Of a DNA stretch of 64,000 nucleotides, positions 12,296-42,352 are shown piece after piece. The stretch spans positions 1,881 to 65,880 of the forward strand of contig JADYZG010000028.1 in the NCBI GenBank assembly GCA_020853235.1, written 5' to 3'. Numbering within the stretch: the first letter of the stretch is position 1; each line of letters starts with the position of its first letter. This DNA is from a bacterium (lineage in GTDB: Bacteria > Patescibacteriota > Dojkabacteria > GCA-002793355). The notes under the pieces were generated by a model, which did not search any database, was not told the DNA's origin, and saw only the letters and a list, made by a program, of their open reading frames with translations. Made by a program: the position numbers and the translations under genes.

Positions 12296-12297
12296 CT

Positions 12298-13923: not shown

Positions 13924-13946
13924 AGAGTGGTGTAAACTGTATTTAC

Positions 13947-14414: not shown

Positions 14415-14453
14415 GCTCGGTACCATTCACTTTTTGAGTGCCATACTTTGAGA

Positions 14454-15590
14454 ATGAAAGTTTTTCAGTCGATTGCAATCTATTTAATAACAAAACAAGT
14501 TGTCTCGAATCACTCTATGGCGAGGTGGTTTATTCCGATGGTTGACAAATTTAAACATCATGATGGCGATATACTTCGATCTGGAGATTTTCATGAATAT
14601 GTCAGAAAGATTTATGCGCAGAAGCTGTTATCTAACGAAGTCGCCAATTATTTGTTGCAAATAACTTTATGGATTGAAGATGGTTATAGACTCCTAGATG
14701 AGTTACTGCAGCAAGATTTCACTGTGCTTCTCCCGGTGAATGCGAACTACCCGACTGAGTTTCTAGAGATTTCAGATAGACCAAGTATCCTTTTTTGCTC
14801 TGGGGACCTGAGTTTATTGAACAATAAAGAAAAGATAACCCTTGTTGGCACAAGAGAACCCTCTTTGTGGGGAAAGAGCAAGGCGGGACAGTTTGCCCTT
14901 GAGGCGGCATTTTGTGGGATAACAACAGTCTCTGGTTTGGCGCAGGGTATTGACGCGATAATTTTCGAAAAGACAGTAGAGTACAGGGGACAGACAATTG
15001 CAGTCCTGCCACAATTAAACTTCTTGAATACCTCAGTTCCAGACAAGGTACTGTATTTATCTGAATATCCACCGAGTGTTAAACCTGTTTCTAAATGGCA
15101 ATTTATTGCGAGGAATAGATTGTTAGCGGCGCTTTCTCCGATAACTATTATTGTGGAAGCACCAGTAAGAAGCGGGACACTAATTACTGCGGAACTTGCT
15201 CTAGGTTACGGAAGATCAGTCTATGTGGCCCTCCCCGACCCCAACGAAGAATCAGGATACGGAGGACAAGTCTTTGGGATAACACAAACGTCTGGCTGTT
15301 TCGTACAAAGTCTTTACGATGTGTTCTATCTTGAAGGTAAATTAGACAATTTAGAAAAATATAAAAAATTCATAGAAGTGCTCTCGCAACAGAAAATTTC
15401 TATAAAAAGTAAAGATTGCCGACATCTTGCACAGGCCGATTTAAAGCGATATTTATACTCTATTTCTCATGGTGACCTGTCGCAACTTGACTCCATCATG
15501 ATAGAATTACATCGTTTTGGTATTATTAAGGAACGAAAAAACAAAGTGATATTTAATTTTTCTGGGTATAACTCATGGCCAAAAATTTAG
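14454..15590 (+). CDS. dprA: DNA-processing protein DprA
   Basis: Rossmann-like DprA core is present (LVGTREPSLWGK, SGLAQGIDAI, RNRLLAALS, APVRSGTLITAELAL). The ATG at 14454 is preferred to the TTG at 14448. Confidence 0.85.
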   Translation: MKVFQSIAIYLITKQVVSNHSMARWFIPMVDKFKHHDGDILRSGDFHEYVRKIYAQKLLSNEVANYLLQITLWIEDGYRLLDELLQQDFTVLLPVNANYPTEFLEISDRPSILFCSGDLSLLNNKEKITLVGTREPSLWGKSKAGQFALEAAFCGITTVSGLAQGIDAIIFEKTVEYRGQTIAVLPQLNFLNTSVPDKVLYLSEYPPSVKPVSKWQFIARNRLLAALSPITIIVEAPVRSGTLITAELALGYGRSVYVALPDPNEESGYGGQVFGITQTSGCFVQSLYDVFYLEGKLDNLEKYKKFIEVLSQQKISIKSKDCRHLAQADLKRYLYSISHGDLSQLDSIMIELHRFGIIKERKNKVIFNFSGYNSWPKI

Positions 15591-17815
15591 TTATTGTGGA
15601 GTCACCAGCAAAGGCAAAAACAATTCAAGGATATTTAGGAAAAGACTTTTCGGTAATAGCAACAGTGGGTCATTTGATTGACTTACCGACAAACAAAATT
15701 GGCGTCGATATAGAAAATAATTATGAAATGATTTATACGAACATTAAAGGCAAAGATAAGATAATTAGCGATATTAAAAAAGCCGTCAAGGCGACAACGG
15801 GAACGGTTTATCTTGCGCAAGACCCTGATCGTGAAGGTGAATCAATCGCGTGGCAGGTCGAGCAAATTTGTCAGTTTTCTAAAAAAAGTGAGAAAGTCCG
15901 CAGAGCCGTCTTTCATGAGATTACAAAAGATGCAATCAAAGCAGCAATTAACAAAACGAGAGATGTTGATGAAGACCTTGTTGAGGCGCAGCAGTCACGC
16001 CGAGTCTTAGACAGGTTGGTTGGTTATCCCCTTTCGCAATTGCTATGGAAAAAAATTCAATTTGGACTTTCTGCAGGTCGAGTTCAGTCGGCGGCACTTC
16101 GTTTAGTCGTTGAACGTGAAGAAGAAATCCGAGCATTTATCCCCGCTCCATATACGACGTTCGTTGCAAAATATAGAGGTATCGATGTTACTTTTACGTT
16201 GGTGGATGCAAAAGGCAGTATGGTTAAAGCAGCACCAGATGAAGGCGATACCTTTAAGAAGTTCCTTGATAAGGTGAATAAGCACGAAGTTATCGAACAT
16301 AAAACAAAAACTGTCACCTCGTCTCCTCCTCCTCCTCTAGTCACGTCGACAATGCAACAAGCCGCAAACCAAACGTTTGGGTTTACTGCAAAAATGACTA
16401 TGAAAATAGCACAAGAGTTATACCAAGGCGTTGATGTAAAAGATAAAGGTGGACGAATAGGGTTGATTTCATACATGCGTACCGATTCAGTAAGTATGAG
16501 TGAGCAAGCCTTGGTCGCTATCAGAAAACTGATTGAATCAAGATACGGAAAACAATTTGTTAATGAAACTGTTCGCCGCTATAAAACAAAATCACGGGTA
16601 GCTCAGGAAGCTCATGAAGCGATTCGTCCAACCCATGTAGAGTTAGCGCCAGATCAAGTCAAACAGTTTTTAACACCACAACAATATAAACTTTACTCGT
16701 TAATTTGGAGACGTGCTGTTGCGACACAGATGAAACCACAAGTACTCGAAGAAGAAAACGTCAGAACCATTCCTATGTCGGGTGAGGCTCGAACAATGTC
16801 AGAAAAACTAAAGTGGAGCTTCGAAGCGGTTTCTCAAAAAGAAGTTTTCGCTGGCTATCGATTATTAAAGCAAGTAGGAGAAAAGGAAATCAAGCCCCTC
16901 CCAGAAGTTAAGAAGGGAGATGTTTTGGATGTCGCTGAAGTAATAACGGAGAATCTTCTGACTGTCCCACGTAGTCGCTACACAGATGCACCACTCGTTA
17001 AAGAAATGGAAAAACTTGGTATTGGTCGTCCTTCAACTTATGCGACGATTATTGGAACGCTTATTACACGTAACTATATTACACGTGAGATGAAGTTGTT
17101 AACTCCAACCGAGATCGGCATGCTCGTTTGTAACTTTCTTAAAAAACATTTCACGAAGATTGTTGATTACGCTTTTACTGCAGAGATGGAAAAAGAACTC
17201 GACAACATTGCAAATTCAAAATCGACAAAGAAGAAAATGATTGATACTTTTTATCCTGAGTTTGCAAAAGACATTGAGGAAAAAAACAAGACCATCGTTA
17301 AGGAAGAGCTTACGTCGCTAGGCGAAACTGATAAAGAATGCCGTAAATGTAAAACGAAAATGCATTTGAAAATTGGTCCATGGGGTAAATACTATGCCTG
17401 TCCAAACGAAGAATGTAAGAACAAAGAACCATTTATCGATATGACAAAATATTATGTACCCGAAGAAGTTGACAAAGAAGGCTATATCCTTAAAAAGGGA
17501 CGTTTTGGTATTTTTTGGGCACATCCGGATTACCCAGAGGTTAAAAAGACAATGCCAGTTCTCCTTAAAGAAGTTTGTCCAGATTGTGGTGCACATCTTG
17601 TAGAACGGCGAGGCAAAACAGGGAGACCATTCGTTGGTTGTTCTGCGTATCCAAATTGTAAATACATTAAAAGTCGGTATTTTAAGAAAGGTGCAAAGAG
17701 CAGCGATAGAGCAAAAACTTCAATAAAAGGAAAAGGTAAGGCTACCACAAAGAAGACAACTAAAAAAGCTCCCAAAAAGAGTGCTTCAAAGACGAAAGCC
17801 AAGAGAACTAAGTAG
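15575..17815 (+). CDS. topA: DNA topoisomerase I (type IA) with C-terminal zinc ribbons and a Lys-rich tail
   Basis: TOPRIM N-terminus (LVIVESPAKAKTI, DPDREGE), active-site region YMRTDS, and Cys4 ribbons (CRKCKT...CPNEEC, CPDCGA...CSAYPNC). It overlaps dprA by 16 nt. Confidence 0.95.
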   Translation: MAKNLVIVESPAKAKTIQGYLGKDFSVIATVGHLIDLPTNKIGVDIENNYEMIYTNIKGKDKIISDIKKAVKATTGTVYLAQDPDREGESIAWQVEQICQFSKKSEKVRRAVFHEITKDAIKAAINKTRDVDEDLVEAQQSRRVLDRLVGYPLSQLLWKKIQFGLSAGRVQSAALRLVVEREEEIRAFIPAPYTTFVAKYRGIDVTFTLVDAKGSMVKAAPDEGDTFKKFLDKVNKHEVIEHKTKTVTSSPPPPLVTSTMQQAANQTFGFTAKMTMKIAQELYQGVDVKDKGGRIGLISYMRTDSVSMSEQALVAIRKLIESRYGKQFVNETVRRYKTKSRVAQEAHEAIRPTHVELAPDQVKQFLTPQQYKLYSLIWRRAVATQMKPQVLEEENVRTIPMSGEARTMSEKLKWSFEAVSQKEVFAGYRLLKQVGEKEIKPLPEVKKGDVLDVAEVITENLLTVPRSRYTDAPLVKEMEKLGIGRPSTYATIIGTLITRNYITREMKLLTPTEIGMLVCNFLKKHFTKIVDYAFTAEMEKELDNIANSKSTKKKMIDTFYPEFAKDIEEKNKTIVKEELTSLGETDKECRKCKTKMHLKIGPWGKYYACPNEECKNKEPFIDMTKYYVPEEVDKEGYILKKGRFGIFWAHPDYPEVKKTMPVLLKEVCPDCGAHLVERRGKTGRPFVGCSAYPNCKYIKSRYFKKGAKSSDRAKTSIKGKGKATTKKTTKKAPKKSASKTKAKRTK

Positions 17816-18446
17816 CCTATTTGGGTATACGTCGCTTAAAAATAGCGAACTTTGGTCATTGATATTGCGATCTGGAACAAGAAAGCAATCGGTTTTCTCT
17901 ATTTCCAGGAAGGTCAGTCCTTTGGTTATGACTGCTCTAGAGAAGGAGATGCCTTCACATATGTTTGAAAAATTCCTTTCATCAAAACTGCAGATTGGTA
18001 CAGTAAGACGACAGGTTATTATGGGCGTTTATGAATTATTTATGCGCCAAAAATCGGGAAAAATAACAACGAATAATTTCTCAAGTCCCGAACCATTGGT
18101 ATCGTATTTTTGTCGCCTTCAGAGTAAGAAACAGGAGTATGTGTATGGTGTGTATCTTACTGCACGGTTACAACTGATACAAACAGAACTGCTCGCCAAA
18201 GGAACAACAGATTCGGTCATGCTTGATGTAAGAGATCTCCTTTATTACGCGATTAAATATAGGTCAAGGAATTTTATTGTGGTTCATAATCATCCAAGTG
18301 GTGACCCAACACCAAGTTCAGAGGATGTTACACTTACAAAACGGATAAAAATTGCTGCAGAGTTACTCTCTCTACAGTTCGTTGATCATATTATTGTCAG
18401 CAAGCAGGCATATTTTAGTTTCAAAGAATCGAGAAGTGTGCTATAA
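17781..18446 (+). CDS. radC: RadC-like JAB domain protein
   Basis: JAMM-like motif HNHPSGDPTPSSEDV and a RadC N-terminal HhH-like segment (SELWSLILRSGTRKQSV). The GTG start overlaps the topA 3' end, and the start is uncertain. Confidence 0.8.
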   Translation: MLQRRKPRELSSLFGYTSLKNSELWSLILRSGTRKQSVFSISRKVSPLVMTALEKEMPSHMFEKFLSSKLQIGTVRRQVIMGVYELFMRQKSGKITTNNFSSPEPLVSYFCRLQSKKQEYVYGVYLTARLQLIQTELLAKGTTDSVMLDVRDLLYYAIKYRSRNFIVVHNHPSGDPTPSSEDVTLTKRIKIAAELLSLQFVDHIIVSKQAYFSFKESRSVL

Positions 18447-18537
18447 TTTCCGTGTCCTCAAAAGGGAAATATATTAAATAAACATGCTTTCGTACTCCTG
18501 CCAAAAAGGTCGAAAGCTTAGGTAAAAGGAGCAAATT
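18439..18537 (+). promoter_or_regulatory. putative rpsB promoter (TGcTATAAT) and structured 5' leader
   Basis: Extended -10 element TGCTATAAT at 18439-18447. A hairpin forms from GCTTTCG (18486-18492) and CGAAAGC (18511-18517). Its loop carries CTCCT (18495-18499), complementary to the SD AAGGAG (18526-18531). Confidence 0.4.
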
Positions 18538-19584
18538 ATGAATAACGAACATTCTATCACTCTGCCAACAGCAGAAGAATTGTTGAAATCAGGCGCACAA
18601 TTCGGGCATTCGGCACAACGATGGCACCCAGCATTCGCACCATTTATTTTCAAGGAAGCAAAAGGTATTCATGTCATTGACGTAAGAAAAACGGTACCTG
18701 CTTTAGAATCTGCAGTAGACTTTTTAGTAAAGGCGGTTGAAAAAGAAGCGAGAGTTCTTATTGTGGGAACTAAAAAACAGGCATCCGCAATCGTTCAAGA
18801 AATGGGTGAAAAGTTCGGTGCTTATTATATTAATGATAAGTGGCCATCAGGGTTATTAACAAACTTTAAGACAGTTTCTCAGTCGATTCAGAAACTACAA
18901 AGATTACAAGAATTACACTTAAAAAAACGATATGTTCTTCCTAAAAAAGAACTTCTCGCAATCCAAAGGGAAATCGAAAAGTTAAAGAAGCGTTTTAACG
19001 GAGTTATGTTTATGGATCGACTCCCACAAATCATGCTTGTTATTGATACGAGATACGAGAAAATTGCAGTCAAAGAAGCGCGAGCATTAAATATTCCAAT
19101 TATTGGTGTTGTTGATTCGAATTGTGACCCACGACTTATTGACTATCCAATTCCATCGAACGACGATGCAATTAAAGCAATTCGTTTACTGTTCGGAGTA
19201 TTTAGTGAAGTGCTAAATAAATTCAGCTCAAAGCGATTGATTCCAATGAGAGAACAGTTTGCTCGAAGATTGGTTGACCTCGAACGTGCAGTTGAAGAAG
19301 AACACCGAATCAAAGTTGCGAGTGAAACTCCAACTATATCAACTGCGCCAACAGTTACTCCACGCGAGGAGTCAAAGAGTGGTCGTACGGTTCGCGTTAC
19401 TTCATTCCGAGCAATTTCTGAACTCAAACTTCCGGAAGCTGTCATCGAAAAATTAACTCAGGCAGGCATTACTTCCGTTGAGCAGTTAAAGGAGAAAACA
19501 CTTGATGAACTCAAGGGTCTGAAAGGTATCGGCGAGAAAACAGCAGAAAAAATAATTTCAATAGTAAAGAAGAATGGCAAATAA
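18538..19584 (+). CDS. rpsB: 30S ribosomal protein S2 with a roughly 100-aa C-terminal extension ending in a helix-hairpin-helix module
   Basis: Canonical S2 N-terminus (LLKSGAQFGHSAQRWHP, VDSNCDP). The extra C-terminus is ...LPEAVIEKLTQAGITSVEQLKEKTLDELKGLKGIGEKTAEKI. A strong SD is present. Confidence 0.95.
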   Translation: MNNEHSITLPTAEELLKSGAQFGHSAQRWHPAFAPFIFKEAKGIHVIDVRKTVPALESAVDFLVKAVEKEARVLIVGTKKQASAIVQEMGEKFGAYYINDKWPSGLLTNFKTVSQSIQKLQRLQELHLKKRYVLPKKELLAIQREIEKLKKRFNGVMFMDRLPQIMLVIDTRYEKIAVKEARALNIPIIGVVDSNCDPRLIDYPIPSNDDAIKAIRLLFGVFSEVLNKFSSKRLIPMREQFARRLVDLERAVEEEHRIKVASETPTISTAPTVTPREESKSGRTVRVTSFRAISELKLPEAVIEKLTQAGITSVEQLKEKTLDELKGLKGIGEKTAEKIISIVKKNGK

Positions 19585-20158
19585 CGAAATTCTTTTAAAA
19601 CTTCGACAGGAAACCAAGGCAAGTTTTGGCCTTTGTAAAGAAGCTGCTGATAAGTACCCTGATAATTACGAAGAGGCAAAAAAGTATATTATTGAGTTAA
19701 TAAAAGAACGAGCTGGAAAGCGCGAGGGTCGAGTTACTCAAAACGGTATAATTCATGCCTACGTTCACGGAAACAGCACGCTTGCATCATTAGTAGAAGT
19801 TCTCTGTGAGACTGATTTTGTAGCACGTAACGAAGAGTTAACGACATTTGCACATGAAGTTGCCTTACAAATTGTTGCGACAGGGCCGAAATATGTCTCT
19901 GCGGATTCTATTGATGCAAAAGAGATAGAAGATTTGAAAGCTCAGTGGAAAGCCGAATTACTCGAAGAAGGAAAACCAGAGGCTGCGATTGAAAAAATTA
20001 TGGAAGGAAAACTCAAAAAATATCTTGCAGAAAATATACTTCTCGATCAACCATACTTCAAGGATGAAAGCAAAACAATCCGTGATCTTCTAGAAGAAGT
20101 TACCGGAAAACTCGGAGAAACAATTAAAATATCACGCTTCGAAAGATGGCAGATTTAG
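19574..20158 (+). CDS. tsf: translation elongation factor Ts (short form)
   Basis: UBA-like N-terminus (LRQETKASFGLCKEA), a conserved EVLCETDFVARNE motif, and synteny after rpsB. Confidence 0.9.
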   Translation: MANNEILLKLRQETKASFGLCKEAADKYPDNYEEAKKYIIELIKERAGKREGRVTQNGIIHAYVHGNSTLASLVEVLCETDFVARNEELTTFAHEVALQIVATGPKYVSADSIDAKEIEDLKAQWKAELLEEGKPEAAIEKIMEGKLKKYLAENILLDQPYFKDESKTIRDLLEEVTGKLGETIKISRFERWQI

Positions 20159-20709
20159 CCCAGATCTGGTCCGATTTAGATACTGATATGCAGCTCGCCG
20201 TAGAGGCGTTCAAAGATGAGGCGCAAAAAATGCGAGCAGGAGGAGTAAATGTTGACATGTTGAAAAACATTCAGATTACTGCCTACGGTTCTATAATGCC
20301 ACTTTACCAAGTTGCGACAATTAGTACTCCAACGCCCGCGACAGCAATTATTACTCCTTGGGATAAAGGTAATTTGAAAGCAACGGCAGACGCACTTCAA
20401 ACAGAAATGAAAGGCGAAGTTATGCCAACGGTTAAGGACGATGCAATATATTTAAATTTTCCTCCATTGACGCAAGAAAAAAAAGAGGAATACACTAAGA
20501 TTTTAAAAGATAGATCTGAGAATTTTCGACAAGGTTTGCGTGATATTAGACAATCAGCGAAAACAAAGATTGAAGACATGAAGAAAAATGGTGAACTCCC
20601 TGAAGACGCAATGTTCAAATCCCTTGAAGATTTAGACGAAACCACCAAAAACTTTACCGAGAAAATTAACGAAATTTACGAGAAGAAAAGAGAGTTATTG
20701 CTCAAGTAA
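20146..20709 (+). CDS. frr: ribosome recycling factor
   Basis: 187 aa with RRF-like regions (ITPWDK, LNFPPLTQE.R, IRQSAK), located directly after tsf. Confidence 0.92.
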   Translation: MADLAQIWSDLDTDMQLAVEAFKDEAQKMRAGGVNVDMLKNIQITAYGSIMPLYQVATISTPTPATAIITPWDKGNLKATADALQTEMKGEVMPTVKDDAIYLNFPPLTQEKKEEYTKILKDRSENFRQGLRDIRQSAKTKIEDMKKNGELPEDAMFKSLEDLDETTKNFTEKINEIYEKKRELLLK

Positions 20710-20752
20710 CGTGTACAGACAGATACCAGTATATGAGGTACAATAGTGTATT

Positions 20753-21865
20753 ATGATTTTCAACATATTACTCTCTCTTTTGATTCTTAATATCATGGTT
20801 ATCGTCCATGAATTGGGACACTACCTTTTAGCAAAACGCAACGGCATTGAAGTTGATGAGTTCGCTATTGGGTTTGGTCCAGTCCTTTGGAAAAAGAAGT
20901 GGAAGGGAACAAAATGGATGATTAAAGCATTTCCTTTAGGTGGTTATAACGGATTAAAGGGTGAGACGGAATCTGAGGGAGGTGCAGGGAATTTTAGTAC
21001 AGCATCAAAGAAGGCAAAGTTTCAAGTGCTTATTGCAGGTTCTTTGATGAATGTATTTACAGCGGTTTTAGCTTTCTATATTACGTTAGGATTATATGGA
21101 TGGATTGTTCCTGTCCCAGTTGAATTTACCCCTGTAGGTGCAGAAATTAAGGTGGTTGGTCCACGGCACCCAATCGTAGAGGCAGTTGTTGAGAATTCTC
21201 CAGCAAGTAAATTAGATATAAAACCACCATATCAACTGATCTCAATCAACGGGTTAGAAGTCGAAACGCCAGGTGATGTATCACGGATAATTGATACCGC
21301 CCAACATGATGAAATGACCTTAGAGATTCGTTTTCAAGACGACACGAGGAAAACCGTGAATGTAACACGTGATAAAGATAGAAAATTGGGAATTAGTATG
21401 TTCCCACAACAGCTAATCCTTGACTATGGAACATCTTTTACACACAAGATATTTTCTGGCTTTAGCCATACGGTTAATGTAACGATGGTAACGGGCAAAG
21501 TTCTTGGTGATATGATTTCTTTTACTTCCAAAACTGGAAATTTCGAACCTCTTAGTTATGCATTTGCTGGACCTGTCGCGATCGTTGCCGCTGTAGACGG
21601 AGTCGTTTCAAACTCCAACCATGTGGTTGCAGATTTAGCAAATATGACCGGATTAATTGGTGTTAGTTTAGCCGTGTTTAACCTATTACCATTTCCTGGG
21701 TTAGATGGATGGCATATTTTCTTGTTGTTCTATGAGAAAGCCAGAAAGCGAAAACCAAATGAAAAACTAGTGGGGATTATTACTGCAATTGGGCTATTTT
21801 TACTCTTAACACTTGGCGTCCTTATTATGGTAAAAGACGTCTGGTTTTTCTTTCTGAGACCATAG
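20753..21865 (+). CDS. rseP: RIP metalloprotease RseP (site-2 protease, M50 family)
   Basis: HELGHY zinc motif in TM1, a PDZ-like middle region, and a C-terminal NLLPFPGLDGWH motif. Confidence 0.88.
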   Translation: MIFNILLSLLILNIMVIVHELGHYLLAKRNGIEVDEFAIGFGPVLWKKKWKGTKWMIKAFPLGGYNGLKGETESEGGAGNFSTASKKAKFQVLIAGSLMNVFTAVLAFYITLGLYGWIVPVPVEFTPVGAEIKVVGPRHPIVEAVVENSPASKLDIKPPYQLISINGLEVETPGDVSRIIDTAQHDEMTLEIRFQDDTRKTVNVTRDKDRKLGISMFPQQLILDYGTSFTHKIFSGFSHTVNVTMVTGKVLGDMISFTSKTGNFEPLSYAFAGPVAIVAAVDGVVSNSNHVVADLANMTGLIGVSLAVFNLLPFPGLDGWHIFLLFYEKARKRKPNEKLVGIITAIGLFLLLTLGVLIMVKDVWFFFLRP

Positions 21866-22078
21866 TGCTATAATTATTCATCGCACGTCGATCAGGATCA
21901 GTAGCAGAAATGTGAACCTACCCTGTGAGTGCTCGAGGAACCGCAATGCTAACTCGTCTGCTGGAGCAGGAAAATCTCCAACTTGAGCCGAAGTATTTCT
22001 TCGGAAAGGTAGGGTGGTACCACGAGCCTAGCTCGTCCTTGCTAATAGAATTGTATTAATTTTATTATTGTAAGGAAT
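21866..22078 (+). promoter_or_regulatory. T-box leader (proline specifier CCU) with its own TGcTATAAT promoter
   Basis: Extended -10 at 21866-21874. Candidate specifier GAA-CCT-A at 21914-21920. Stem III hairpin CCGAAG/CTTCGG at 21988-22004. T-box sequence AAAGGTAGGGTGGTACCACGAG at 22005-22026 with a TGGTACC bulge. Antiterminator-like helices are ACGAGC/GCTCGT and GTAGGG/CCTTGC. Confidence 0.8.
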
Positions 22079-23824
22079 ATGAGGTACACGCAAATGTTAA
22101 CTAAATCTCAGAAATCCTCGAAAACGTTTGATAGCGTTAATGCAACGTTATTAATTCGTGGTGGATTTGTCGACCAGCTTATGTCTGGTGTTTATACCTT
22201 TTTACCACTGGGATGGAGAGTTCTGAAAAAAATTGAAGATATTGTTCGAGAAGAAATGGACAAAATCGGCGAAGAAGTGTTTATGCCTGCTATTGCACCA
22301 AAAGAAGTATGGGAAACAACAGGAAGATTCAGTACAGTTGACGTGTTATTTAAGGTAGTCCCAGCAAATGAAACCTCCAAAAATAAGAATGGTGCTGAGT
22401 ATGTTCTTAATTGTACACACGAAGAGCTTATAACTCCTTTAGCAAAAAAGTTTGCGACTTCGTACAAAGATTTACCAAAGGCTGTCTATCAAATTCAATC
22501 GAAGTTTCGTAACGAGGCTCGTGCAAAATCAGGTATTATGCGCGGGCGAGAGTTTCGCATGAAAGATCTTTACTCTTTTCATACGAGTGTCGATGATCTT
22601 AAGATGTATTATGAAAAAGCGAAAGCTGCTTATTTTACAACATTCAAACGTCTCGGGTTAGAGAAAGATACAGTATTAGCAGCAGCTTCTGGAGGAGACT
22701 TCACCGAAGACTTTTCGCATGAATTCCAAACAAGATGTGAAGCAGGTGAAGACACAATATTCTTTGTTCAAAGTACTAAAGAGGCGTTCAATAAAGAAAT
22801 CGCTCCATCAAGAAGTGTCTCTTTTGACCAAGATAAAGAGCAAAAAGCATTGGAAAAAGTATTTGGAGAGAATATTATCGGTGTTGCAGAACTTTGTGAA
22901 TTTATGGGTATTAGTGCAGAAAATACTACAAAAACACTTATCTTTGATACAGAAAAAGGTCCTATCATTTGTTCAGTACGAGGTGATTATGAAGTTAATG
23001 TGCTAAAGTTGAAGAAATGTGCTGGTGTCAAACAGCTAGTTCTTGCCTCAGAAGAAACAGTCAAAAAGGTAACAAGCGCCGAAGTTGGGTATGCAGGTAT
23101 CTATAATTTGCCTAGCGATATTCCAGTGTTTATTGATGACTCTATTGCCGATCTTGTTAATTTCGAAACTGGAGCAAACGAGACACATTACCATATGAAG
23201 AATATGAATTGGGGAAGAGATATTCAAAAACCAGAAAAATTCTACGACATCAAAGAAGCAAAATTAGGTGATATGTTTCCTGTCACAGGAGAAGTTTATG
23301 AAGTATTTAAGTCAGCAGAAGTTGGCAACATCTTCCCTCTCTATACGAAATTTACTGATGCAGTTGATTATAAATTTGTCGACGCAAATGGTACATTAAA
23401 GCAGGTTTATATGGGGTCTTATGGTATCGGAACCTCACGCGTTATGGGAGTACTTGTTGAGAAGTTCCATGATGAGAAAGGAATCATTTGGCCAATTCAA
23501 GTCGCACCTTACGTCGTTCATTTGGTAAGTCTCGGCGATACTGTAGAAGTAAAAGAGATGGCAAACAAACTGTACGAAGAGCTGCAGCATAAGAACATTG
23601 AAGTGCTTTGGGATGACAGGGATACAATATCTGCCGGAGAAAAATTTGCTGACGCAGACCTTATCGGATGCCCTATTCGTGCGACAATTAGTACAAGGAG
23701 CATTGAGAAAGGTGGTGTCGAATTAAAGACACGATCTGGTCAAGATGTAGAATATGTAAGTGCTGAAATAGCAATTGATACTATTCAGAAGATGATAAAC
23801 CTGTTGAGAAATGCACTGAAATAA
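22079..23824 (+). CDS. proS: proline--tRNA ligase, bacterial type with INS editing domain
   Basis: 581 aa. The N-terminus aligns with bacterial ProRS (LIRGGFVDQLMSGVYTFLPLGWRVLKKIEDIVREEM). Motif 2 is FRNEARAKSGIMRGREFRMKD and motif 3 is GSYGIGTSRV, and a middle insertion domain is present. Confidence 0.9.
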   Translation: MRYTQMLTKSQKSSKTFDSVNATLLIRGGFVDQLMSGVYTFLPLGWRVLKKIEDIVREEMDKIGEEVFMPAIAPKEVWETTGRFSTVDVLFKVVPANETSKNKNGAEYVLNCTHEELITPLAKKFATSYKDLPKAVYQIQSKFRNEARAKSGIMRGREFRMKDLYSFHTSVDDLKMYYEKAKAAYFTTFKRLGLEKDTVLAAASGGDFTEDFSHEFQTRCEAGEDTIFFVQSTKEAFNKEIAPSRSVSFDQDKEQKALEKVFGENIIGVAELCEFMGISAENTTKTLIFDTEKGPIICSVRGDYEVNVLKLKKCAGVKQLVLASEETVKKVTSAEVGYAGIYNLPSDIPVFIDDSIADLVNFETGANETHYHMKNMNWGRDIQKPEKFYDIKEAKLGDMFPVTGEVYEVFKSAEVGNIFPLYTKFTDAVDYKFVDANGTLKQVYMGSYGIGTSRVMGVLVEKFHDEKGIIWPIQVAPYVVHLVSLGDTVEVKEMANKLYEELQHKNIEVLWDDRDTISAGEKFADADLIGCPIRATISTRSIEKGGVELKTRSGQDVEYVSAEIAIDTIQKMINLLRNALK

Positions 23825-23844
23825 TATCAAGTTATACATAGTAT

Positions 23845-25269
23845 ATGGAAAAAATTCCAAATATTTACGAGGATTTTTCAGAATGGTATCAGTATGTCAC
23901 TTTAAAGGCGGAATTAGCGGATTACGGTCCAGTTAAGGGCACTATGATCCATCGACCATACGGTTTTGCTTTATGGAAACAAGTACAGAAAGTGCTTGGA
24001 AACATGATTGAAGAGGATGAAGTTGAAGATGTTTACTTTCCAATGTTTATTCCGTACTCTTTTCTTGCTGCAGAGAAGGAGCATGTTGAAGGTTTTGCAC
24101 CAGAAGTAGCAATGGTAACTCAGGCAGGAGGAGAGAAACTTGATGAGCCGCTTGTTGTTCGACCAACATCCGAAACCATTATGTATAAGACGTTTCCCAA
24201 CTGGATACATTCTTATCGTGATCTACCTTTGAAAATTAACCAATGGTGTAACATCGTTCGCTGGGAAAAGAGGACCGTAATGTACATGAGAACATCTGAA
24301 TTCTTATGGCAAGAAGGTCATACTGCTCATGCCACGAGAGAAGGAGCTGTTGAGGACGTTATGGAGTCTGCAAAACGATATAACAGATTTTTGCGAGAGT
24401 ACATGGCAGTTCCTGGGTATATGGGTTACAAAACTGAAGGTGAAAAATTTGCTGGAGCAGACTTTACTGTTACAATTGAAGCACTTGTAAGAAATAAAAA
24501 AGCACTCCAAATCGCGACCTCTCACCTACTGGGACAAAATTTTGCAAAAGCGTTTAACATTTCATTCTTAGACGAGAACAATCAAACGCAACATGTTTGG
24601 CAGACAAGTTGGGGGTTTAGTACCCGCGCTTTGGGGGGAATGCTTGGTGCTCATGGTGATGAAAAAGGTCTAGTGTTGCCACCAAGAATGGCACCAATCC
24701 AGATTATTATTGTTCCTATATTCAGGACTGAAGAAGATCGTGTTGTTGTTGCCAACTATCTTGCAGGTGTAGAAGAAATGTTTAAAAACGCTAAAATTCG
24801 ATTCAAAACAGACTGGGGAACAGGAACACCTGGTTGGAAGTTCAATCAGTGGGAGATGAAAGGTGTGCCACTGAGACTAGAAGTTGGTAAACGAGAAGCA
24901 GAAGCTAAGCAGTTAAGCTTTAGCACACGACTTGGTAAAAAGGTTGGTTATGCAATGGAATCACAGGTTTACAAAGAAATTGAATTGCTTCTTGAAGAGA
25001 TCCAAGCAGAAATTTTTAGGAATGCAGAGAATTTCTTACTTGAGAATACTGTTGATATCTCCTCAGAAAAAGAACTCGTTGAGGCAATGGAATCGGGTAA
25101 AGCAATGTATCGTGCATTCTTCAAAGATGATACGAAGCGAGCGAAAGAATTACAGGAAAAATATAAGATTACTCCGCGCGTTATTCCTTTTGACACGATT
25201 GATCAAAGAGGTCCAGATTTCATCACTGGTGAAGAGGGGGTTCCAACTATCTTTGCAAAAGCCTATTAA
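23845..25269 (+). CDS. proS: proline--tRNA ligase, archaeal/eukaryote-like type
   Basis: 474 aa. The N-terminus FSEWYQYVTLKAELADYGPVKGTMIHRPYGFALW and the RPTSET and RTSEFLWQEGHTAH motifs fit this type. The protein ends in Tyr (...FAKAY), characteristic of this ProRS class. Confidence 0.9.
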   Translation: MEKIPNIYEDFSEWYQYVTLKAELADYGPVKGTMIHRPYGFALWKQVQKVLGNMIEEDEVEDVYFPMFIPYSFLAAEKEHVEGFAPEVAMVTQAGGEKLDEPLVVRPTSETIMYKTFPNWIHSYRDLPLKINQWCNIVRWEKRTVMYMRTSEFLWQEGHTAHATREGAVEDVMESAKRYNRFLREYMAVPGYMGYKTEGEKFAGADFTVTIEALVRNKKALQIATSHLLGQNFAKAFNISFLDENNQTQHVWQTSWGFSTRALGGMLGAHGDEKGLVLPPRMAPIQIIIVPIFRTEEDRVVVANYLAGVEEMFKNAKIRFKTDWGTGTPGWKFNQWEMKGVPLRLEVGKREAEAKQLSFSTRLGKKVGYAMESQVYKEIELLLEEIQAEIFRNAENFLLENTVDISSEKELVEAMESGKAMYRAFFKDDTKRAKELQEKYKITPRVIPFDTIDQRGPDFITGEEGVPTIFAKAY

Positions 25270-25286
25270 TTGTGTATAATTCGTTC

Positions 25287-25523
25287 ATGGCAGTTATTGT
25301 TGTACATAAAAATGAACCAATCGACTCTGTTTTGAGACGTTTTCAAAGACAAGTTATTAAAGAAGGTGTTATTTCTGACGTGTTGGATAAGCGTCATTTT
25401 GTCTCAAAGTCAGAAGCGAAGCGAATTAAAGCTCATGAACTTGAACGATCTGCAGGTCGAAAGCGACGACGAGCCAAGAGCAAACCACGAACTACTGTTC
25501 GAGTCAAAAAGAAGATGTTTTAA
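25287..25523 (+). CDS. rpsU: 30S ribosomal protein S21
   Basis: S21-like sequence with a basic tail (VVHKNEPIDSVLRRFQRQVIKEGV...). The ATG at 25287 is preferred, and TATAAT at 25275-25280 lies 6 nt upstream. Confidence 0.88.
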   Translation: MAVIVVHKNEPIDSVLRRFQRQVIKEGVISDVLDKRHFVSKSEAKRIKAHELERSAGRKRRRAKSKPRTTVRVKKKMF

Positions 25524-25529
25524 TGCTTC

Positions 25530-25985
25530 ATGCATATTGACTATTCAATAACGACTATTCAGCAGAAAATGAATGTTCAGAGTGTCCTTGATTTTTTATC
25601 ACAACCACATAGTTTAAGGATTCTCGACAAATGCCCGCAGTTAGCTTTAAAAAGCAGAAATCAGACCATTTTCATTAACATAATTGGTGCTCGGAGAATG
25701 AGTACACTCAATAAGTCGTATCGCAAGAAAGACACTTCAACAGATGTACTTAGTTTTGAGTTATATGAGAATGGTGTAATGGGCGAATTATATATTTGTC
25801 CAGATGATATTGAGAAAAATGCTCGTATGTTGAAACACTCCTTTGAAAATGAATTACTAGAAATTACCATTCACGGCATGCTCCATCTCAGTGGTTACGA
25901 TCACTCTGAGGAAATGTTTAGCTGGCAAAAAAGGCTAACTGATCTTATACTGAAAGAATATGAAAATACTCGTAGGGCTCGGTAA
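25530..25985 (+). CDS. ybeY: rRNA maturation RNase YbeY
   Basis: Zinc motif HGMLHLSGYDH in a 151-aa protein. Confidence 0.9.
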   Translation: MHIDYSITTIQQKMNVQSVLDFLSQPHSLRILDKCPQLALKSRNQTIFINIIGARRMSTLNKSYRKKDTSTDVLSFELYENGVMGELYICPDDIEKNARMLKHSFENELLEITIHGMLHLSGYDHSEEMFSWQKRLTDLILKEYENTRRAR

Positions 25986-26523
25986 TCCGGGTAAAGAATT
26001 TGAAAAGACACCGCACAATGCGGGTTTTATCGCACTAGATCTTCTTGTAAGAAAGTTACAATCAATGGGGTTCTCAGTTGAAAGTTGGCATGAAATTAAG
26101 AAAGAAAAGAGTATGGTATCTGAAGTTTTTTCTGAAGATGGACGAAGGGTGGCAGTTTTAGTGAAACCACAAACCTTTATGAACTTAAGTGGTGGAGCCG
26201 TTCAACAAGTTATGGCTAAGTATGGGGTGAAGTCAGCTGAGGACGTTATGATTATTTATGACGAGCTTGATATTACCTTGGGGGAGTTCAAATACTCACC
26301 TATTAAGAACTCACGTACTCACAAAGGTATTAGTTCAGTTATTTCAACAGTTGGGAAAGCAGTTCATTCCTTACGAATTGGTGTGGAAAATAGAGCTAAC
26401 AAACATATTCCAGGGCAAGATTATGTCGTAAGATCATATTCAGAGAAAGAATTACTGGAGCTATCGTCAGCTGGAGAGCGAGCAATCGAGCAACATGTAC
26501 TCGATTTTTTAGAGTTGGTATAA
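25960..26523 (+). CDS. pth: peptidyl-tRNA hydrolase
   Basis: N-terminus MKILVGLGNPGKEFEKTPHNAGF and the KPQTFMNLSG motif. It overlaps ybeY by 26 nt. Confidence 0.93.
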   Translation: MKILVGLGNPGKEFEKTPHNAGFIALDLLVRKLQSMGFSVESWHEIKKEKSMVSEVFSEDGRRVAVLVKPQTFMNLSGGAVQQVMAKYGVKSAEDVMIIYDELDITLGEFKYSPIKNSRTHKGISSVISTVGKAVHSLRIGVENRANKHIPGQDYVVRSYSEKELLELSSAGERAIEQHVLDFLELV

Positions 26524-26551
26524 TGAGGTAAGCTAATTTAAAGCTCACTAT

Positions 26552-27124
26552 ATGTCTTTACCTATCATTTTCACGGGAAGGGGAGTTGAGGTTACGGAAG
26601 CACTCAAGAATTATATTGAAGATCGGCTTCTAAAAGTTCCACATATCGAAATGGTAACACATGTAGATGTCGAAATCGGTAAAACAGTATTTCATAAAGG
26701 TTCGGATAAAGATTTTTATATTAGGTTACTTTTAACATTGCCGAAGGCAGTTGTTCGAATTAAAAAGGAAGGGGCAGATGTTTATGTTCTTATGGACGAA
26801 ATGGTTCCAAGCTTGCATCACAAGATGCTTCACTATAAGGATAATTTTCGAAAGTGGGAAGGTTCTGAATCATGGCCGGAAACAGCTATAGTTGAGGATG
26901 TCGCTCAGTATAAAGATGATTCCGCGAGTGCCATTTATGCAGGATACACCCCTACCGTTCGAAGAAAAATTATTAGCGAAATGGCTCCGATGTCAGTTAC
27001 AGAGGCAATAGAACGAATGGAACTTCTAGATAGAGAGTTCTTTGTTTTCAAAGACATTCAATCCAACAATATCGCTGTCGTCGCTAAAAAAGGAAACGGA
27101 TACGAAGTAGTCGTAGCTCAATAG
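26552..27124 (+). CDS. hpf: ribosome hibernation promoting factor (long HPF)
   Basis: S30AE-like N-domain (GRGVEVTEALKNYIEDRLLKV) plus a C-terminal dimerisation-type domain (MSVTEAIERMELLDREFFVF). Confidence 0.85.
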   Translation: MSLPIIFTGRGVEVTEALKNYIEDRLLKVPHIEMVTHVDVEIGKTVFHKGSDKDFYIRLLLTLPKAVVRIKKEGADVYVLMDEMVPSLHHKMLHYKDNFRKWEGSESWPETAIVEDVAQYKDDSASAIYAGYTPTVRRKIISEMAPMSVTEAIERMELLDREFFVFKDIQSNNIAVVAKKGNGYEVVVAQ

Positions 27125-27160
27125 TTTGGTTAATTACGGATTCTTTGTCGAAACTTGCGA

Positions 27161-27928
27161 TTATTTCGTTGGATCTTTACTAAAGAGTCGCTGTATCAAG
27201 CTGATACTTTTCATGAATCCGTACTGTCTGCTACTCGCCGAGACAAGGGTGTTTTTATCGTTATAACCCGTAAGCGCTGTACTAATCCATTCTTGTCTTT
27301 TTGTATTTAACATTGAAGCTTTAATCTCTGAGACAATTTGTTCTTTGACATCTGCCAACTTTTTACCCTTGAAGAGCTCTTTGTTTTCAGTAAAATAGTC
27401 GTTAATTTCTTTCTCTGTTGGTTCTGTAAGTGTTCCTTCGAGAAGCTTGTCGAGTGTTACTGTAACGCGAACATAGGCTCGATAATCGTTCGCAGTAATT
27501 CCATTTTGTGCTAATGCAGCTTCGAAGTCCGCATCAGTAGAAATGCCTGCGCGGGTTTTGTCTGCATTTATTGCTGTATTTACTTCATCGTCACTGACTG
27601 TAATTCCCTTATCTTTTGCTGCTTGTGCAATTGCTGCTTTTGCAAGCATTTCGTTAACAACCTGCTCTCCGTATTGTCTTTCGAGCTCTTTTATGTATGC
27701 AGCTCTAGGGACATCGGCATTTTTATAGAATGCGACATATTGCGAAGTAATTGAAGTCTGAATTAGCCAATCAACAGCAGGAATAAGTATCAGCGCTACA
27801 ACAATTCCAACAGCGACTTTGATGAGTGTTCCTTTTTTGAGGCTGAATTTTGTTGGGAGTTTAAATCTCTTCGAAGTTTCCTCCACTACTGGTGTAGAAA
27901 TTGCTTCGGTAACTTTCTTCTCTTTCAT
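27161..27928 (-). CDS. SurA N-terminal-domain / PpiD-like membrane-anchored chaperone without a recognisable PPIase domain
   Basis: 255 aa with one TM (VAVGIVVALILIPAV), followed by a helical chaperone-like region. A TGTTATAAT element on the minus strand sits at 27960-27968. Confidence 0.55.
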   Translation of the reverse strand: MKEKKVTEAISTPVVEETSKRFKLPTKFSLKKGTLIKVAVGIVVALILIPAVDWLIQTSITSQYVAFYKNADVPRAAYIKELERQYGEQVVNEMLAKAAIAQAAKDKGITVSDDEVNTAINADKTRAGISTDADFEAALAQNGITANDYRAYVRVTVTLDKLLEGTLTEPTEKEINDYFTENKELFKGKKLADVKEQIVSEIKASMLNTKRQEWISTALTGYNDKNTLVSASSRQYGFMKSISLIQRLFSKDPTK

Positions 27929-28008
27929 AATATCGTAACGTTTTTATGTTAATACGCTAATTATAACAGATAGATTTCAGCTGACTAGTTGGATATATTA
28001 CTTTTGTA

Positions 28009-29382
28009 CTATAAAACTTGTTTTTTGGAATCTAGTCCATCAAGATGCCAGTAGATACTTAAAAGTCTTTTTCCGTTGTATACATTACCGTGGTTAACCA
28101 AGGCATATCGCCCACCCATACTATCGACCCCATAATATACTCTGCCAGGTAGAGCCGCATATATTGGTGAACGCCAACCGTTGAGAGAAAACACCTGACC
28201 AGGAACTTGCCCATTGCAGGCACGAGAGAGTATCTTGTATTTCTTACTGCTATTTTGGTTGCCTGCCGTAGTAGAAACCATATCAACCGATTGCCAGTCG
28301 TGGAAACCTTGTGTCATGAGTGCACCTGCAAGCGGGGCTTTTGCCCGACCATCTGATATACGCAATCCTGATAAATTAAGCAAACCAGAAGTAAAAGGAT
28401 TCACATTCGTATAGTAACTTGAGCCTGTACCTGATATAAACCCAAAATGAAGGTGTGCGCCAAAAGTACATCCAGTGAAACCTTCAAGTCCGATAACGGT
28501 ACCTCTTTCGACTGGTGTACCGTCCCCTAATTTATTCGCTTCAAACAGCTGGATCGCTACAGAAAGCGCTTGTCTTTCTGCAATGTTTTGTTGAGCTATA
28601 AGTTTCGATTTTTCTGCTGCAAGTTGTTTCTCCTGTTGTGCAAGTGTGTTGAGTAATCCTTGTTGTTTGTTTCTTTGTTCGGCAAGTGTTGTTCTGAGCT
28701 TGATTATCTCGAGATTTGCTGCTTCTATAATGTCTCGCTTTTGAATGATTTCCACTTGTGCAATACCAAGTACTTTTTCCTCTGAAGATAGCTGCGATTG
28801 TAAGTTGGTAAATTGTGCCAAGCGCGTCTTTTCTTGTTGAGACACGTAGTCGAAGTAACGGAGCATTTCTAATGTAGATATAAGATCATTTTGCGCAAGT
28901 AAATACCAGACAGGGACACTGTTTACTTTGTAAGCGAGCATGGCAACATCATTCACTTTCTGAACCGAAGTGTGTGTCTCTTGTTTTAGCGTGTCAATTC
29001 TGTTCTTTGTTTCAGCTATATCCTCTCCTATATTAGAGATTTCTATGCTCGCAATTTCTAGTCCAATCTGTTTTTGCTCAAGTTCGTTCTCATTAGCGGT
29101 AATCTGTGCATTAATCTCGTCAATTTGCGATTGAATATCACCTTCTTGCGCTCGAACATTTCGTAGCGTACTCTCTATTTTTTTTCGTTCATTCTTAAGA
29201 TCATTACTTTTTTTGACAAGGTAGTCGTAACACTGGCTATTTGAGTACCCATCAGGACATCCATTTGCCGCAAAGACGGGTACTGCTCTAATTGCAGATG
29301 TGTTGACAGCTAGTACAATCACCGAAAAAAAACCGAGAATAATCTTTGTAGTTGCACGAATTTTCATAGGTAATATTTGCAT
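28009..29382 (-). CDS. coiled-coil M23 family metallopeptidase (EnvC/PcsB-like FtsEX partner)
   Basis: Signal/anchor, then about 250 aa of heptad-rich coiled coil, then M23 motifs (GFTGCTFGAHLHFGF, FHDWQSVD, PIYAALPGRV, GGRYALVNHG, SIYWHL). It lies immediately downstream of ftsEX. Confidence 0.8.
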   Translation of the reverse strand: MQILPMKIRATTKIILGFFSVIVLAVNTSAIRAVPVFAANGCPDGYSNSQCYDYLVKKSNDLKNERKKIESTLRNVRAQEGDIQSQIDEINAQITANENELEQKQIGLEIASIEISNIGEDIAETKNRIDTLKQETHTSVQKVNDVAMLAYKVNSVPVWYLLAQNDLISTLEMLRYFDYVSQQEKTRLAQFTNLQSQLSSEEKVLGIAQVEIIQKRDIIEAANLEIIKLRTTLAEQRNKQQGLLNTLAQQEKQLAAEKSKLIAQQNIAERQALSVAIQLFEANKLGDGTPVERGTVIGLEGFTGCTFGAHLHFGFISGTGSSYYTNVNPFTSGLLNLSGLRISDGRAKAPLAGALMTQGFHDWQSVDMVSTTAGNQNSSKKYKILSRACNGQVPGQVFSLNGWRSPIYAALPGRVYYGVDSMGGRYALVNHGNVYNGKRLLSIYWHLDGLDSKKQVL

Positions 29383-29391
29383 TTTGCCGTG

Positions 29392-30309
29392 TTATTTTAT
29401 GTACCGTTTCGTTGCTAAATATGCACAACCATAGCCGATTATTGCACCCATACCGACTTCGATAAGACCGAATACAACGAATAATAAAGACGGATAGAAC
29501 AATGCCTGGAGTCCAACACTCGAAACCATATCGTGGATAAATTTGAAAAGTATGTTGTCTTTAAGGACTATGTTCGCACCTATCCATAACAATAGGATCG
29601 ATATATAAGAAATCGAAGAAGCAACGACACCGTAAACCATACCTTGCATGACAAAAGGCATTGCGATTACACGTGGTTCTGCCCCAACGAGATCCATAAT
29701 TTCAATTTCTTGTGAGAATCGATTAATAGTGAATCCAATGGTTAAGTAGACTAATACAATTGAAATTATAAAGAGGAAGGTTGTAATAGCAATACTGCTG
29801 ACCGTAACTGTATTGCTAAATTGTCTAATCTTTTCAACTATATCTTGAAAAAAGACTCGATCAATAATCAATGCTCCTTTGTTTTTTTCATCATCGACCA
29901 TCTTCACAAACGGTTGATATGCAACGTTTGGTTTGAGTTGAACACGAATAATGCGGATTTGATTTGCATCAAACGTATACTGCCCCTGTTGTTCAGGCGA
30001 GATTCCAATACTGGTGAGATATTGCTTCTGTATGTCGGCAGACGTAGAATAGGTCACTTTCAACACTCCTTCTTGTTGTTCTAGATATGATTTGAAGGTG
30101 ATGATGTTTTCTTCTTTTTCTTTTGGGTCATAAAATACTGAAAGAGTTGGTTGACTTTGTAAATAGATGACAGATTTTGTTGCAAATTGATTGATGACAA
30201 AAAAAAGCGTTCCGAGGGAGAAGGTTACAGTAATAATAACAATGCTCGCCAAGGAAAGGCCAGGGTTTCTGCGTATATATTTCCAGGTTGTTGCCCAAAC
30301 TAAGTTCAT
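29392..30309 (-). CDS. ftsX: cell division permease-like protein FtsX
   Basis: 305 aa with TM1, a large extracytoplasmic loop and three C-terminal TMs. It follows ftsE. Confidence 0.85.
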   Translation of the reverse strand: MNLVWATTWKYIRRNPGLSLASIVIITVTFSLGTLFFVINQFATKSVIYLQSQPTLSVFYDPKEKEENIITFKSYLEQQEGVLKVTYSTSADIQKQYLTSIGISPEQQGQYTFDANQIRIIRVQLKPNVAYQPFVKMVDDEKNKGALIIDRVFFQDIVEKIRQFSNTVTVSSIAITTFLFIISIVLVYLTIGFTINRFSQEIEIMDLVGAEPRVIAMPFVMQGMVYGVVASSISYISILLLWIGANIVLKDNILFKFIHDMVSSVGLQALFYPSLLFVVFGLIEVGMGAIIGYGCAYLATKRYIK

Positions 30310-30311
30310 AA

Positions 30312-31190: not shown

Positions 31191-31246
31191 AAGAAGATTG
31201 TAACATAATTAAAATCTTTCGATACATTGGCTGTATACAAAGTATT

Positions 31247-42194: not shown

Positions 42195-42235
42195 CGTGGA
42201 CTCTTGTATCGGGGCATACTATAATACGGAATCAC

Positions 42236-42323: not shown

Positions 42324-42352
42324 ATTGGTACCCAAAGGGTGGCAATCGGAGA
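42317..42352 (+). other. long hairpin formed by the tRNA-Ser 3' end and its trailer
   Basis: TTCTCCGATTGGTACCC-AAA-GGGTGGCAATCGGAGAA forms about 17 bp with one mismatch and one GU pair. No U-tract follows. Confidence 0.5.

Follow-up and report, generated by a model that had tools for sequence, protein, structure and literature searches.

Analysis of a 64,000-nt stretch of contig JADYZG010000028.1 from a Dojkabacteria genome (assembly GCA_020853235.1), referred to here as the window, indicated that the 213 nt separating proS (22079-23824), the gene of a bacterial-type prolyl-tRNA synthetase (ProRS), from the rseP-like M50 protease gene before it (20753-21865) probably harbor a proline-specific T-box riboswitch with a truncated Stem I that controls the initiation of proS translation. 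The leader and proS lie on the + strand, and all leader features below are given on that strand. ProRS homology was used to retrieve loci of relatives from genomes, metagenomes and assemblies, and the element was found independently 5' of proS in seven of them. Three independent relatives, L001 (a Dojkabacteria metagenome-assembled genome, of which L005 and L006 are near-identical copies), L009 and L010, show the leader architecture of the window and encode ProRS proteins 68-72% identical to that of the window. Four sister Dojkabacteria lineages, L011 (WS6 GW2011_GWF2_39_15), L012, L014 and L019, encode ProRS proteins 63-64% identical to it and carry leaders of a terminator type.

The Rfam T-box model RF00230, run with permissive filters, matched positions 21879-22043 over the full model (1-219 of 219) with 49.7 bits. 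The E-value was 5.5e-10 when 501 nt were searched and 7e-8 when both strands of the entire 64 kb were searched, and no other T-box match was obtained. The T-box recognized in the preliminary description is thus recovered by a significant, full-length covariance-model match, yet one below the Rfam gathering score of 93, which is an operational cut-off and not a biological feature. The score falls short because about 55 model positions of the distal Stem I are missing, with 4 nt in their place, and the rest of the alignment has high posterior probability, especially AAAggUAGGGUGGUACCACGAGCCUAGCUCGUCCUUGCU. The Rfam scan at the gathering score reported no T-box in the window and only the tRNAs Gln-CUG, Ser-CGA and Arg-CCU; this miss was rejected as evidence of absence, the permissive scan having recovered the element. 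The proS leaders of L001, L009 and L010 scored 48, 60.9 and 55.3 bits, respectively, and the copies of all relatives about 33-61 bits against the cut-off of 93, so that the lineage as a whole escapes standard Rfam annotation. A covariance model, R1, built from the four-way alignment described below, found a single copy in the window, matched also the proS leaders of L014, L012 and L015, and matched nothing before other genes.

The leader contains the parts of a T-box in their usual order. Stem I is truncated to 50 nt (21883-21932) according to the RF00230 alignment, as compared with 47-49 nt in L009 and L010 and 80 nt in L001, and compensatory pairs occur in its base helix (two) and its distal stem (one). 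The base helix GCAC/GUGC (21883-86/21929-32) is followed by a kink-turn (K-turn, GA motif) predicted from the sequence at 21887-21892/21926-21928, with the bulge GUC at 21887-89 and the tandem pairs G90.A28 and A91.G27, and then by the helix CAGG/CCUG (21893-96/21922-25). The specifier loop has AUCAGUA on its 5' side and GAACCUAC on its 3' side and retains the AGUA/GAA elements of an S-turn; the tip of the stem is formed by a 3-bp stem with a GAAA tetraloop (21904-21913). The distal elbow-binding module, which consists of the AG bulge and the distal loop as interdigitated T-loops, is absent. Stem II (21934-21956; CGAG/CUCG) encloses the conserved GAAACC...GCUAAC loop, and its four pairs are 100% paired in the alignment with one compensatory change (A-U to G-C in L010). 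The Stem IIA/B pseudoknot (21958-21980) combines the helix IIA CUG/CAG (21958-60/21967-69) with the pairing IIB of UGGAG (21962-66) with CUCCA (21976-80). Stem III (21988-22004) reads CCGAAG-UAUUU-CUUCGG and has six pairs, two of them compensatory.

The T-box sequence together with the antisequestrator, the ON-state fold, occupies 22005-22042, as deduced from the RF00230 alignment and the covariation. Helix A1 pairs GUAGGG (22009-14) with CCUUGC (22037-42) and shows one compensatory pair and two one-sided changes, and helix A2 pairs ACGAGC (22022-27) with GCUCGU (22031-36). Between the 5' strands lies the 7-nt bulge UGGUACC (22015-21), invariant in the four leaders (window, L001, L009 and L010), of which UGGU (22015-18) could pair with the 3' ACCA of the tRNA. 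The region fits the Rfam consensus UaGGGUGGUACCGCGag...cuCGUCCC with a posterior probability near 1, and the letters of the T-box with A1 and A2 read UAGGGUGGUACCACGAG...CUCGUCCUUGC at 22010-22042. All coordinates of the preliminary description proved exact, including those of AAAGGTAGGGTGGTACCACGAG (22005-22026), A1, A2, GAA-CCT-A (21914-21920) and GTAAGGA (22070-22076).

An explicit structure of 41 pairs in nine helices (Stem I base, under-specifier helix, distal mini-stem, Stem II, IIA, IIB, Stem III, A1 and A2) was evaluated on a trimmed alignment of the window, L001, L009 and L010, which replaced a first MAFFT alignment in which the 3' halves were misaligned. In total 96.3% of the 162 cells were paired, and compensatory changes were observed in 11 of the 41 pairs, spread over seven of the nine helices. 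Sliding the partners gave 0-3 compensatory pairs, and none of 500 shuffles reached 11. The IIB pseudoknot alone is compensatory at three of its five pairs (U-A/U-G/G-U/C-G; G-C/A-U; G-C/A-U) with all cells paired. Since the slid controls fall far below the observed count and the changes extend over seven of the nine helices, the T-box architecture is secure, few as the sequences compared are. The conservation in relatives that the preliminary description had called for was thus obtained, the three relatives keeping both the architecture (11 compensatory pairs vs 0-3 in slid controls) and a proline specifier, CCC-G.

The specifier codon of the window is CCU (Pro) at 21917-21919, preceded by GAA and followed by the purine A21920, as first proposed. 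The corresponding sequence is GAA-CCC-G in L009 and L010 and CAA-CCC-G in L001, and the terminator-type leaders L011, L012, L014 and L019 display U-CCY-A (U-CCC-A or U-CCU-A) in the terminal loop of Stem I. Of the triplets, CCY alone is conserved in all eight leaders, every clearly alignable relative has a proline codon followed by a purine, and the regulated gene codes for ProRS. The alternative codons AAC, ACC and CUA of the specifier loop were rejected as they are not conserved across the eight leaders. A specifier assignment for L015, whose leader has a T-box match of 32 bits and a terminator, was not retained: the nucleotide after its CCU is U, and the codon could also be read in other frames.

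The tRNA side of the specificity was covered in part. The tRNA-Pro(CGG) of the three Dojkabacteria relatives L011, L012 and L013 has the acceptor stem CGGGGUG/CACCCCG, an A73 discriminator and no encoded CCA, and this A73 is compatible with the U of the UGGU bulge. The discriminator that had been expected was thus seen in relatives, on the CGG isoacceptor; the isoacceptor that would read CCU would carry a GGG, AGG or UGG anticodon, and the 64-kb window contains no tRNA-Pro gene. A GGG anticodon would read CCC by Watson-Crick pairing. In twelve genes of the window proline is coded by CCA 137 times, by CCU 72 times and by CCG and CCC 20 times each. The tRNA-Pro(CGG) genes were located at 759-834 in L011, 960-1033 in L012 and 2582-2655 in L013, that is, about 2 kb 5' of proS beside argS in L011 and L012 and about 350 nt 5' of proS in L013, and linkage of tRNA-Pro to proS hence recurs.

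At its 3' end the leader presents a competing hairpin, the sequestrator or OFF-state fold, at 22036-22076, in which UCCUUGC+UAAUAGAAUUG pairs with UAAUUUUAUUA+(UU)+GUAAGGA over 18 bp with a 2-nt bulge and no U-tract. The pairing of TCCTTGC (22036-22042) with GTAAGGA (22070-22076) that had been described previously is confirmed, forms the base of a longer helix than was first recognized, and is kept in four of four leaders. The hairpin alone folds with -13.7 kcal/mol, compared with -3.1 +/- 1.6 kcal/mol for 200 dinucleotide shuffles (z -6.8), none of which folds as well; it is present in the minimum free energy (MFE) structure of the leader and in that of the 3' domain, and it ends 2 nt before the AUG at 22079. 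Since nucleotides 22036-22042 are common to the sequestrator and the antisequestrator, the two folds are mutually exclusive. The antisequestrator alone has -12.5 kcal/mol, and the 3' domain has an MFE of -28.4 kcal/mol when folded freely (OFF) vs -17.6 kcal/mol when A1 and A2 are enforced (ON). In the ON fold the inner AU hairpin alone persists and 22066-22093 are unpaired.

In all four leaders of the window type the 3' strand of the T-box is complementary to a segment of 6-7 nt whose last nucleotide is 1-3 nt away from the AUG. The pairing involves CCUUGCU/AGUAAGG in L009 and CCUUAC/GUAAGG in L010, both 1 nt from the AUG, and CUCGUC/GGCGAG in L001, 3 nt from it; in L001 both strands are changed in sequence and still pair. 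A pattern scan found no + strand terminator-like site in 21600-22300, in line with the earlier statement that no GC hairpin with a U-tract follows the T-box. The translational mode of action proposed previously is well supported by inference from this absence, from the hairpin at 22036-22076 abutting the AUG, and from the U-tract and wider spacing that the homologous hairpin has in sister lineages.

Based on these structures we infer tRNA binding, the direction of the response and a block at translation initiation as follows. Transcription would start about 7 nt after the TGCTATAAT box, and Stem I, Stem II, the IIA/B pseudoknot and Stem III would together dock tRNA-Pro by its anticodon. With uncharged tRNA, the 3' ACCA would pair with UGGU (22015-18) and stabilize the antisequestrator A1 + A2, which would hold CCUUGC (22037-42), leave about 14 nt before the AUG single-stranded and permit translation of proS. 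With charged or absent tRNA, 22036-42 would pair with GUAAGGA (22070-76), and the resulting 18-bp hairpin at the start codon would block 30S binding.

Several observations weigh against this reading. The predicted mean accessibility of positions -15 to +3 rises from OFF to ON only from 0.43 to 0.57 in the window and from 0.48 to 0.50 in L009. GUAAGGA is separated from the AUG by 2 nt in the window and by 1 nt in L009 and L010, which makes a textbook sequestration of a Shine-Dalgarno (SD) sequence doubtful. Moreover, an SD-like core within 22 nt was found in only about 8 of the 54 open reading frames (ORFs) of the window that code for 150 aa or more, a crude survey in which gene starts were taken as the first ATG. 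An isoacceptor of tRNA-Pro that reads CCU was not found in the window, and a GGG anticodon would read CCU only by G.U wobble. Terminator-like sites were not enriched over shuffles in 12001-32000 (17 vs 13.5 +/- 3.6), U-tract terminators are hence not demonstrable elsewhere in the genome, and for this reason the absent U-tract is weaker evidence here than it would be in Firmicutes. The covariation comes from four related sequences with a shuffle control that ignores phylogeny, and the 49.7 bits lie below the Rfam gathering score. All support is computational, and the switching of the T-box is itself predicted.

The preliminary description had interpreted the OFF state as SD sequestration, and this interpretation stands in part: the segment before the AUG is paired in the OFF fold, and the role of GUAAGGA as a ribosome-binding site is doubtful in view of its 2-nt distance from the AUG in an SD-poor genome. 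According to the spacing optima of Escherichia coli, 2 nt is far too close, especially for an SD of the UAAGG type. The AAGGA within GUAAGGA is SD-like, and L001 carries GGCGAG at this place. The sister lineages also have the motif UAAGG(G), there in the 3' arm of the terminator and 25-40 nt from the AUG, a distance at which it cannot be an SD. The 3' arm is purine-rich because it is complementary to the A1 3' strand, which is itself the complement of the conserved AGGG of the T-box. GUAAGGA is therefore probably not a canonical SD, and the safer statement is that the conserved feature is the occlusion of the region immediately 5' of the start codon, not of an SD. SD pairing may nonetheless exist in this organism and contribute at proS, as rpsB has AAGGAG at 6 nt; the 3' end of the 16S rRNA is encoded outside the window. 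A TATAAT or TACAAT box was noticed 4-10 nt before the ATG of many ORFs (for example 32194, 46069, 54290, 44137(-), 45371(-) and 25272), which suggests, from sequence, that leaderless or near-leaderless mRNAs are widespread.

In the sister lineages the same hairpin appears as a terminator. The leaders of L011, L012, L014 and L019 read ...AAGUGGUAC(C/A)GCG...ACGCCUUUGCAAUAG...UUGUAAGGGCG, then UUUAUUUUUUU, followed by 25-40 nt to the AUG, and their terminators lie just before position 3001. The pattern scan detected 20-bp terminators with a U-tract in L012 and L014 and none in L010. In an alignment of the platforms, the hairpin of the window coincides with that of the terminators in L011, L012 and L014, UUAUUGUAAGGA of the window falling on UGUUGUAAGGGCG of the sisters, and the U-tract and the spacer are missing in the window and in L010. 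The alignment indicates that sequestrator and terminator are one homologous hairpin and that the difference is what comes 3' of it.

Stem I of the terminator-type leaders is only 29-32 nt long (L011 2750-2778, L012 2768-2799, L014 2805-2836 and L019 2812-2843) and consists of the K-turn, a 4-bp helix and a terminal loop with the codon. The 4-bp helix covaries and is different in each of the four (GGAG/CUCC, UAGG/CCUA, CCAU/AUGG and UGGU/ACCA). L011 and L019 have the bulge UGGUACA instead of UGGUACC, and both are missed by the Rfam model. These sister leaders share with the window the gene proS, the Pro specifier, the T-box bulge and the homologous hairpin CCUUUGCAAUAG...UUGUAAGGG; they differ in that the IIA/B region is a plain hairpin, the codon is in a terminal loop, and a U-tract and 25-40 nt precede the AUG. 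A Stem I of 29-32 nt combined with a terminator is unexpected in view of the published generalization that transcriptional T-boxes need a long Stem I.

We tentatively propose, as an arrangement with somewhat less than an even chance of being correct, that the Dojkabacteria proS leaders form a natural series in which one hairpin is a terminator in one lineage and a start-site sequestrator in its sister, the two differing by the U-tract and the 25-40-nt spacer, with the terminator-type members having the smallest Stem I and the translational member occluding the start region in an SD-poor genome rich in leaderless mRNAs. If true, the series would run counter to the rule that a T-box acting on transcription requires a long Stem I to grip the elbow of the tRNA. 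The relatives offer a rare side-by-side view of one platform hairpin as terminator or sequestrator.

The homology of the hairpin at 22036-22076 to bona fide terminators in L011, L012, L014 and L019 also raises the question of whether the T-box of the window still acts on transcription, the hairpin halting the polymerase without a U-tract or through Rho- or other factor-dependent termination or pausing. Termination signals of the candidate phyla radiation (CPR) are uncharacterized, and the lack of enrichment of terminator-like sites in the window fits this explanation. However, the U-tract, which is needed for intrinsic termination in characterized bacteria, is absent in the window, L009, L010 and L001; the hairpin is AU-rich with just three G-C pairs at its base; and it ends 1-3 nt from the AUG in four of four leaders, a placement that is meaningful for initiation and not for termination. 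We consider action on transcription unlikely.

A decaying relic without regulation, with proS expressed constitutively or its role taken over by an adjacent second ProRS, appears more improbable still. In its favor, the window, alone among the loci, encodes a complete family I ProRS 20 nt after proS, and the leader has a truncated Stem I and a low Rfam score. On the other hand, compensatory changes in seven of nine helices, the invariant UGGUACC, the Pro codon and the pre-AUG complementarity are all kept at 68-72% ProRS identity, and structure kept in this way across lineages points to purifying selection on the structure; L009 and L010, moreover, have the same leader without a second ProRS. 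A chance resemblance in a region that is only a promoter and an AU-rich 5' untranslated region is effectively refuted: the score is below the Rfam gathering threshold and AU-rich sequence readily forms hairpins, but the E-value of 7e-8 with the full model, the proS leaders of seven other relatives, the pseudoknot covariation and a codon that matches the gene all speak against it.

The element is restricted to a lineage and is not general to CPR. No leader and no T-box was detected at proS in the Saccharibacteria and Falkowbacteria loci L002-L004, L007 and L008, and in a Dojkabacteria sub-clade (P0016, P0017, P0019, P0021 and L013) only 30-90 nt are present 5' of proS.

T-boxes are considered characteristic of Firmicutes and of a small number of other Terrabacteria phyla, and translational T-boxes with a truncated Stem I are, to our knowledge, known almost only from actinobacterial ileS. 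The leaders of Bacillus subtilis proBA and proI are reportedly Pro-specific transcriptional T-boxes, an account that is said to go back to Brill et al. 2011. With the canonical Firmicutes transcriptional T-boxes of the RF00230 seed type the window shares the T-box, A1/A2 with the 7-nt bulge, the K-turn, Stem II, IIA/B and Stem III, as well as the specifier loop AGUA...GAA-codon-purine, with a Pro codon in the Pro-specific ones. It differs from them in that the distal part of Stem I with the AG bulge and the distal loop, about 55 nt in all, is lacking, as is a GC-rich terminator with a U-tract.

Closer similarities are found with the ileS T-boxes of Mycobacterium tuberculosis and M. smegmatis. 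According to the work of Sherwood, Grundy and Henkin (2015) as summarized in PMC7583486 and PMC7778990, these share with the window a truncated Stem I without the double-T-loop module, Stem II, the IIA/B pseudoknot, a canonical discriminator with a UGGN bulge, no terminator, and an A1 3' strand that alternatively pairs with the pre-start region to give a bistable ON/OFF switch for 30S access, the last being predicted here. The truncated class described for Actinobacteria is defined by the same missing elbow-binding module, and Stem II and the IIA/B pseudoknot are essential when Stem I is short (PMC7583486). The likeness to ultrashort-Stem I translational ileS T-boxes noted in the preliminary description was borne out in the truncated Stem I, the missing elbow module and the competing sequestrator, and the leader of the window belongs, functionally and architecturally, with the truncated-Stem I translational T-boxes. 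It differs from the ileS type in its specificity (Pro, CCU, vs Ile), gene (proS vs ileS) and host (Dojkabacteria vs an actinobacterium), in an internal specifier loop capped by the 3-bp stem and GNRA loop, in a sequestered segment, GUAAGGA, that stands 2 nt before the AUG and, the genome being SD-poor, is probably no canonical SD, and in a sequestrator that is recognizably a former (or future) terminator hairpin.

In the searchable literature no paper combining T-boxes with the candidate phyla radiation or Patescibacteria was found, nor a description of the sister Dojkabacteria proS leaders. In the database TBDB the search for translational T-boxes was limited to Actinobacteria and to class I matches whose Stem I is truncated. 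New here are the CPR/Dojkabacteria host, the Pro specificity on proS, the start context without a canonical SD, and the related terminator and sequestrator forms. A covarying, functional-looking Pro T-box in CPR extends the family to ultra-small, streamlined genomes about whose regulation little is known, and compact tRNA-sensing RNAs of about 165-200 nt could be of use in structural and synthetic-biology work.

The ProRS encoded by proS (22079-23824, +), the regulated gene, contains the class II core, the INS editing domain and the anticodon-binding domain according to Pfam, and is a bacterial-type enzyme of the NCBIfam proS family II equivalog (TIGR00409). Its best named relatives are from Candidatus Dojkabacteria / candidate division WS6 and next from other Microgenomates-type CPR, in agreement with the CPR-like host surmised from the sequence alone. 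We placed the start at the ATG at 22079, because homologues conserve the N-terminus that begins there, M-[KR]-[YF]-[ST]-[KQ], which corresponds to MRYTQ in the window; the start of the NCBI record P0001 (576 aa), the in-frame ATG at 22094, was rejected on the same grounds. In the MFE structure of the 3' domain the T-box bulge GUGGUACC (22014-22021) pairs with GGUACAC in proS codons 2-4 (22083-22089), and this pairing overlaps GAGGU, which would be suitably spaced to serve the second in-frame AUG, at 22094, as an SD. L010, but neither L009 nor L001, is predicted to form a similar pairing, which may be a coincidence since GGUACC is a palindrome.

An extended -10 promoter box, TGCTATAAT, was read from the sequence at 21866-21874 (+), directly 3' of the rseP stop codon, with a transcription start predicted at about 21881, the foot of Stem I. 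L001, L009 and L010 have TGnTATAAT or TATAAT with an identical spacing to Stem I. A sigma-70 scan did not call the TGCTATAAT promoter, the -35 being weak; our assignment is based on the extended -10 and its conserved position.

The genes 5' of proS are rpsB, tsf, frr and rseP. On its 3' side, 20 nt after the T-box-controlled proS, a second complete ProRS is encoded at 23845-25269 (+), which belongs to family I, the archaeal/eukaryote-like type, with a match to NCBIfam TIGR00408 of 515.7 bits that exceeds the cut-off, and has a GC content of 0.404, similar to the 0.393 of the window. It is absent beside proS in all related loci fetched, and the order in L009 and L010 is proS-rpsU-ybeY-pth. With one ProRS of bacterial type under T-box control and another of archaeal type that appears unregulated, the tandem poses the testable question of why a minimal genome would keep two.

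Two further observations concern other parts of the window. Weak sub-threshold Rfam matches at 42225-42367 (Plastid-psbl-rps4 3'UTR and sX4) overlap tRNA-Ser(CGA) at 42235-42324 and are almost certainly artefacts of this tRNA. Ribosomal protein S2, encoded at 18538-19584 (+), is extended at its C terminus by about 100 aa, in which Pfam matches to helix-hairpin-helix and RNA polymerase alpha-CTD-like domains were obtained.

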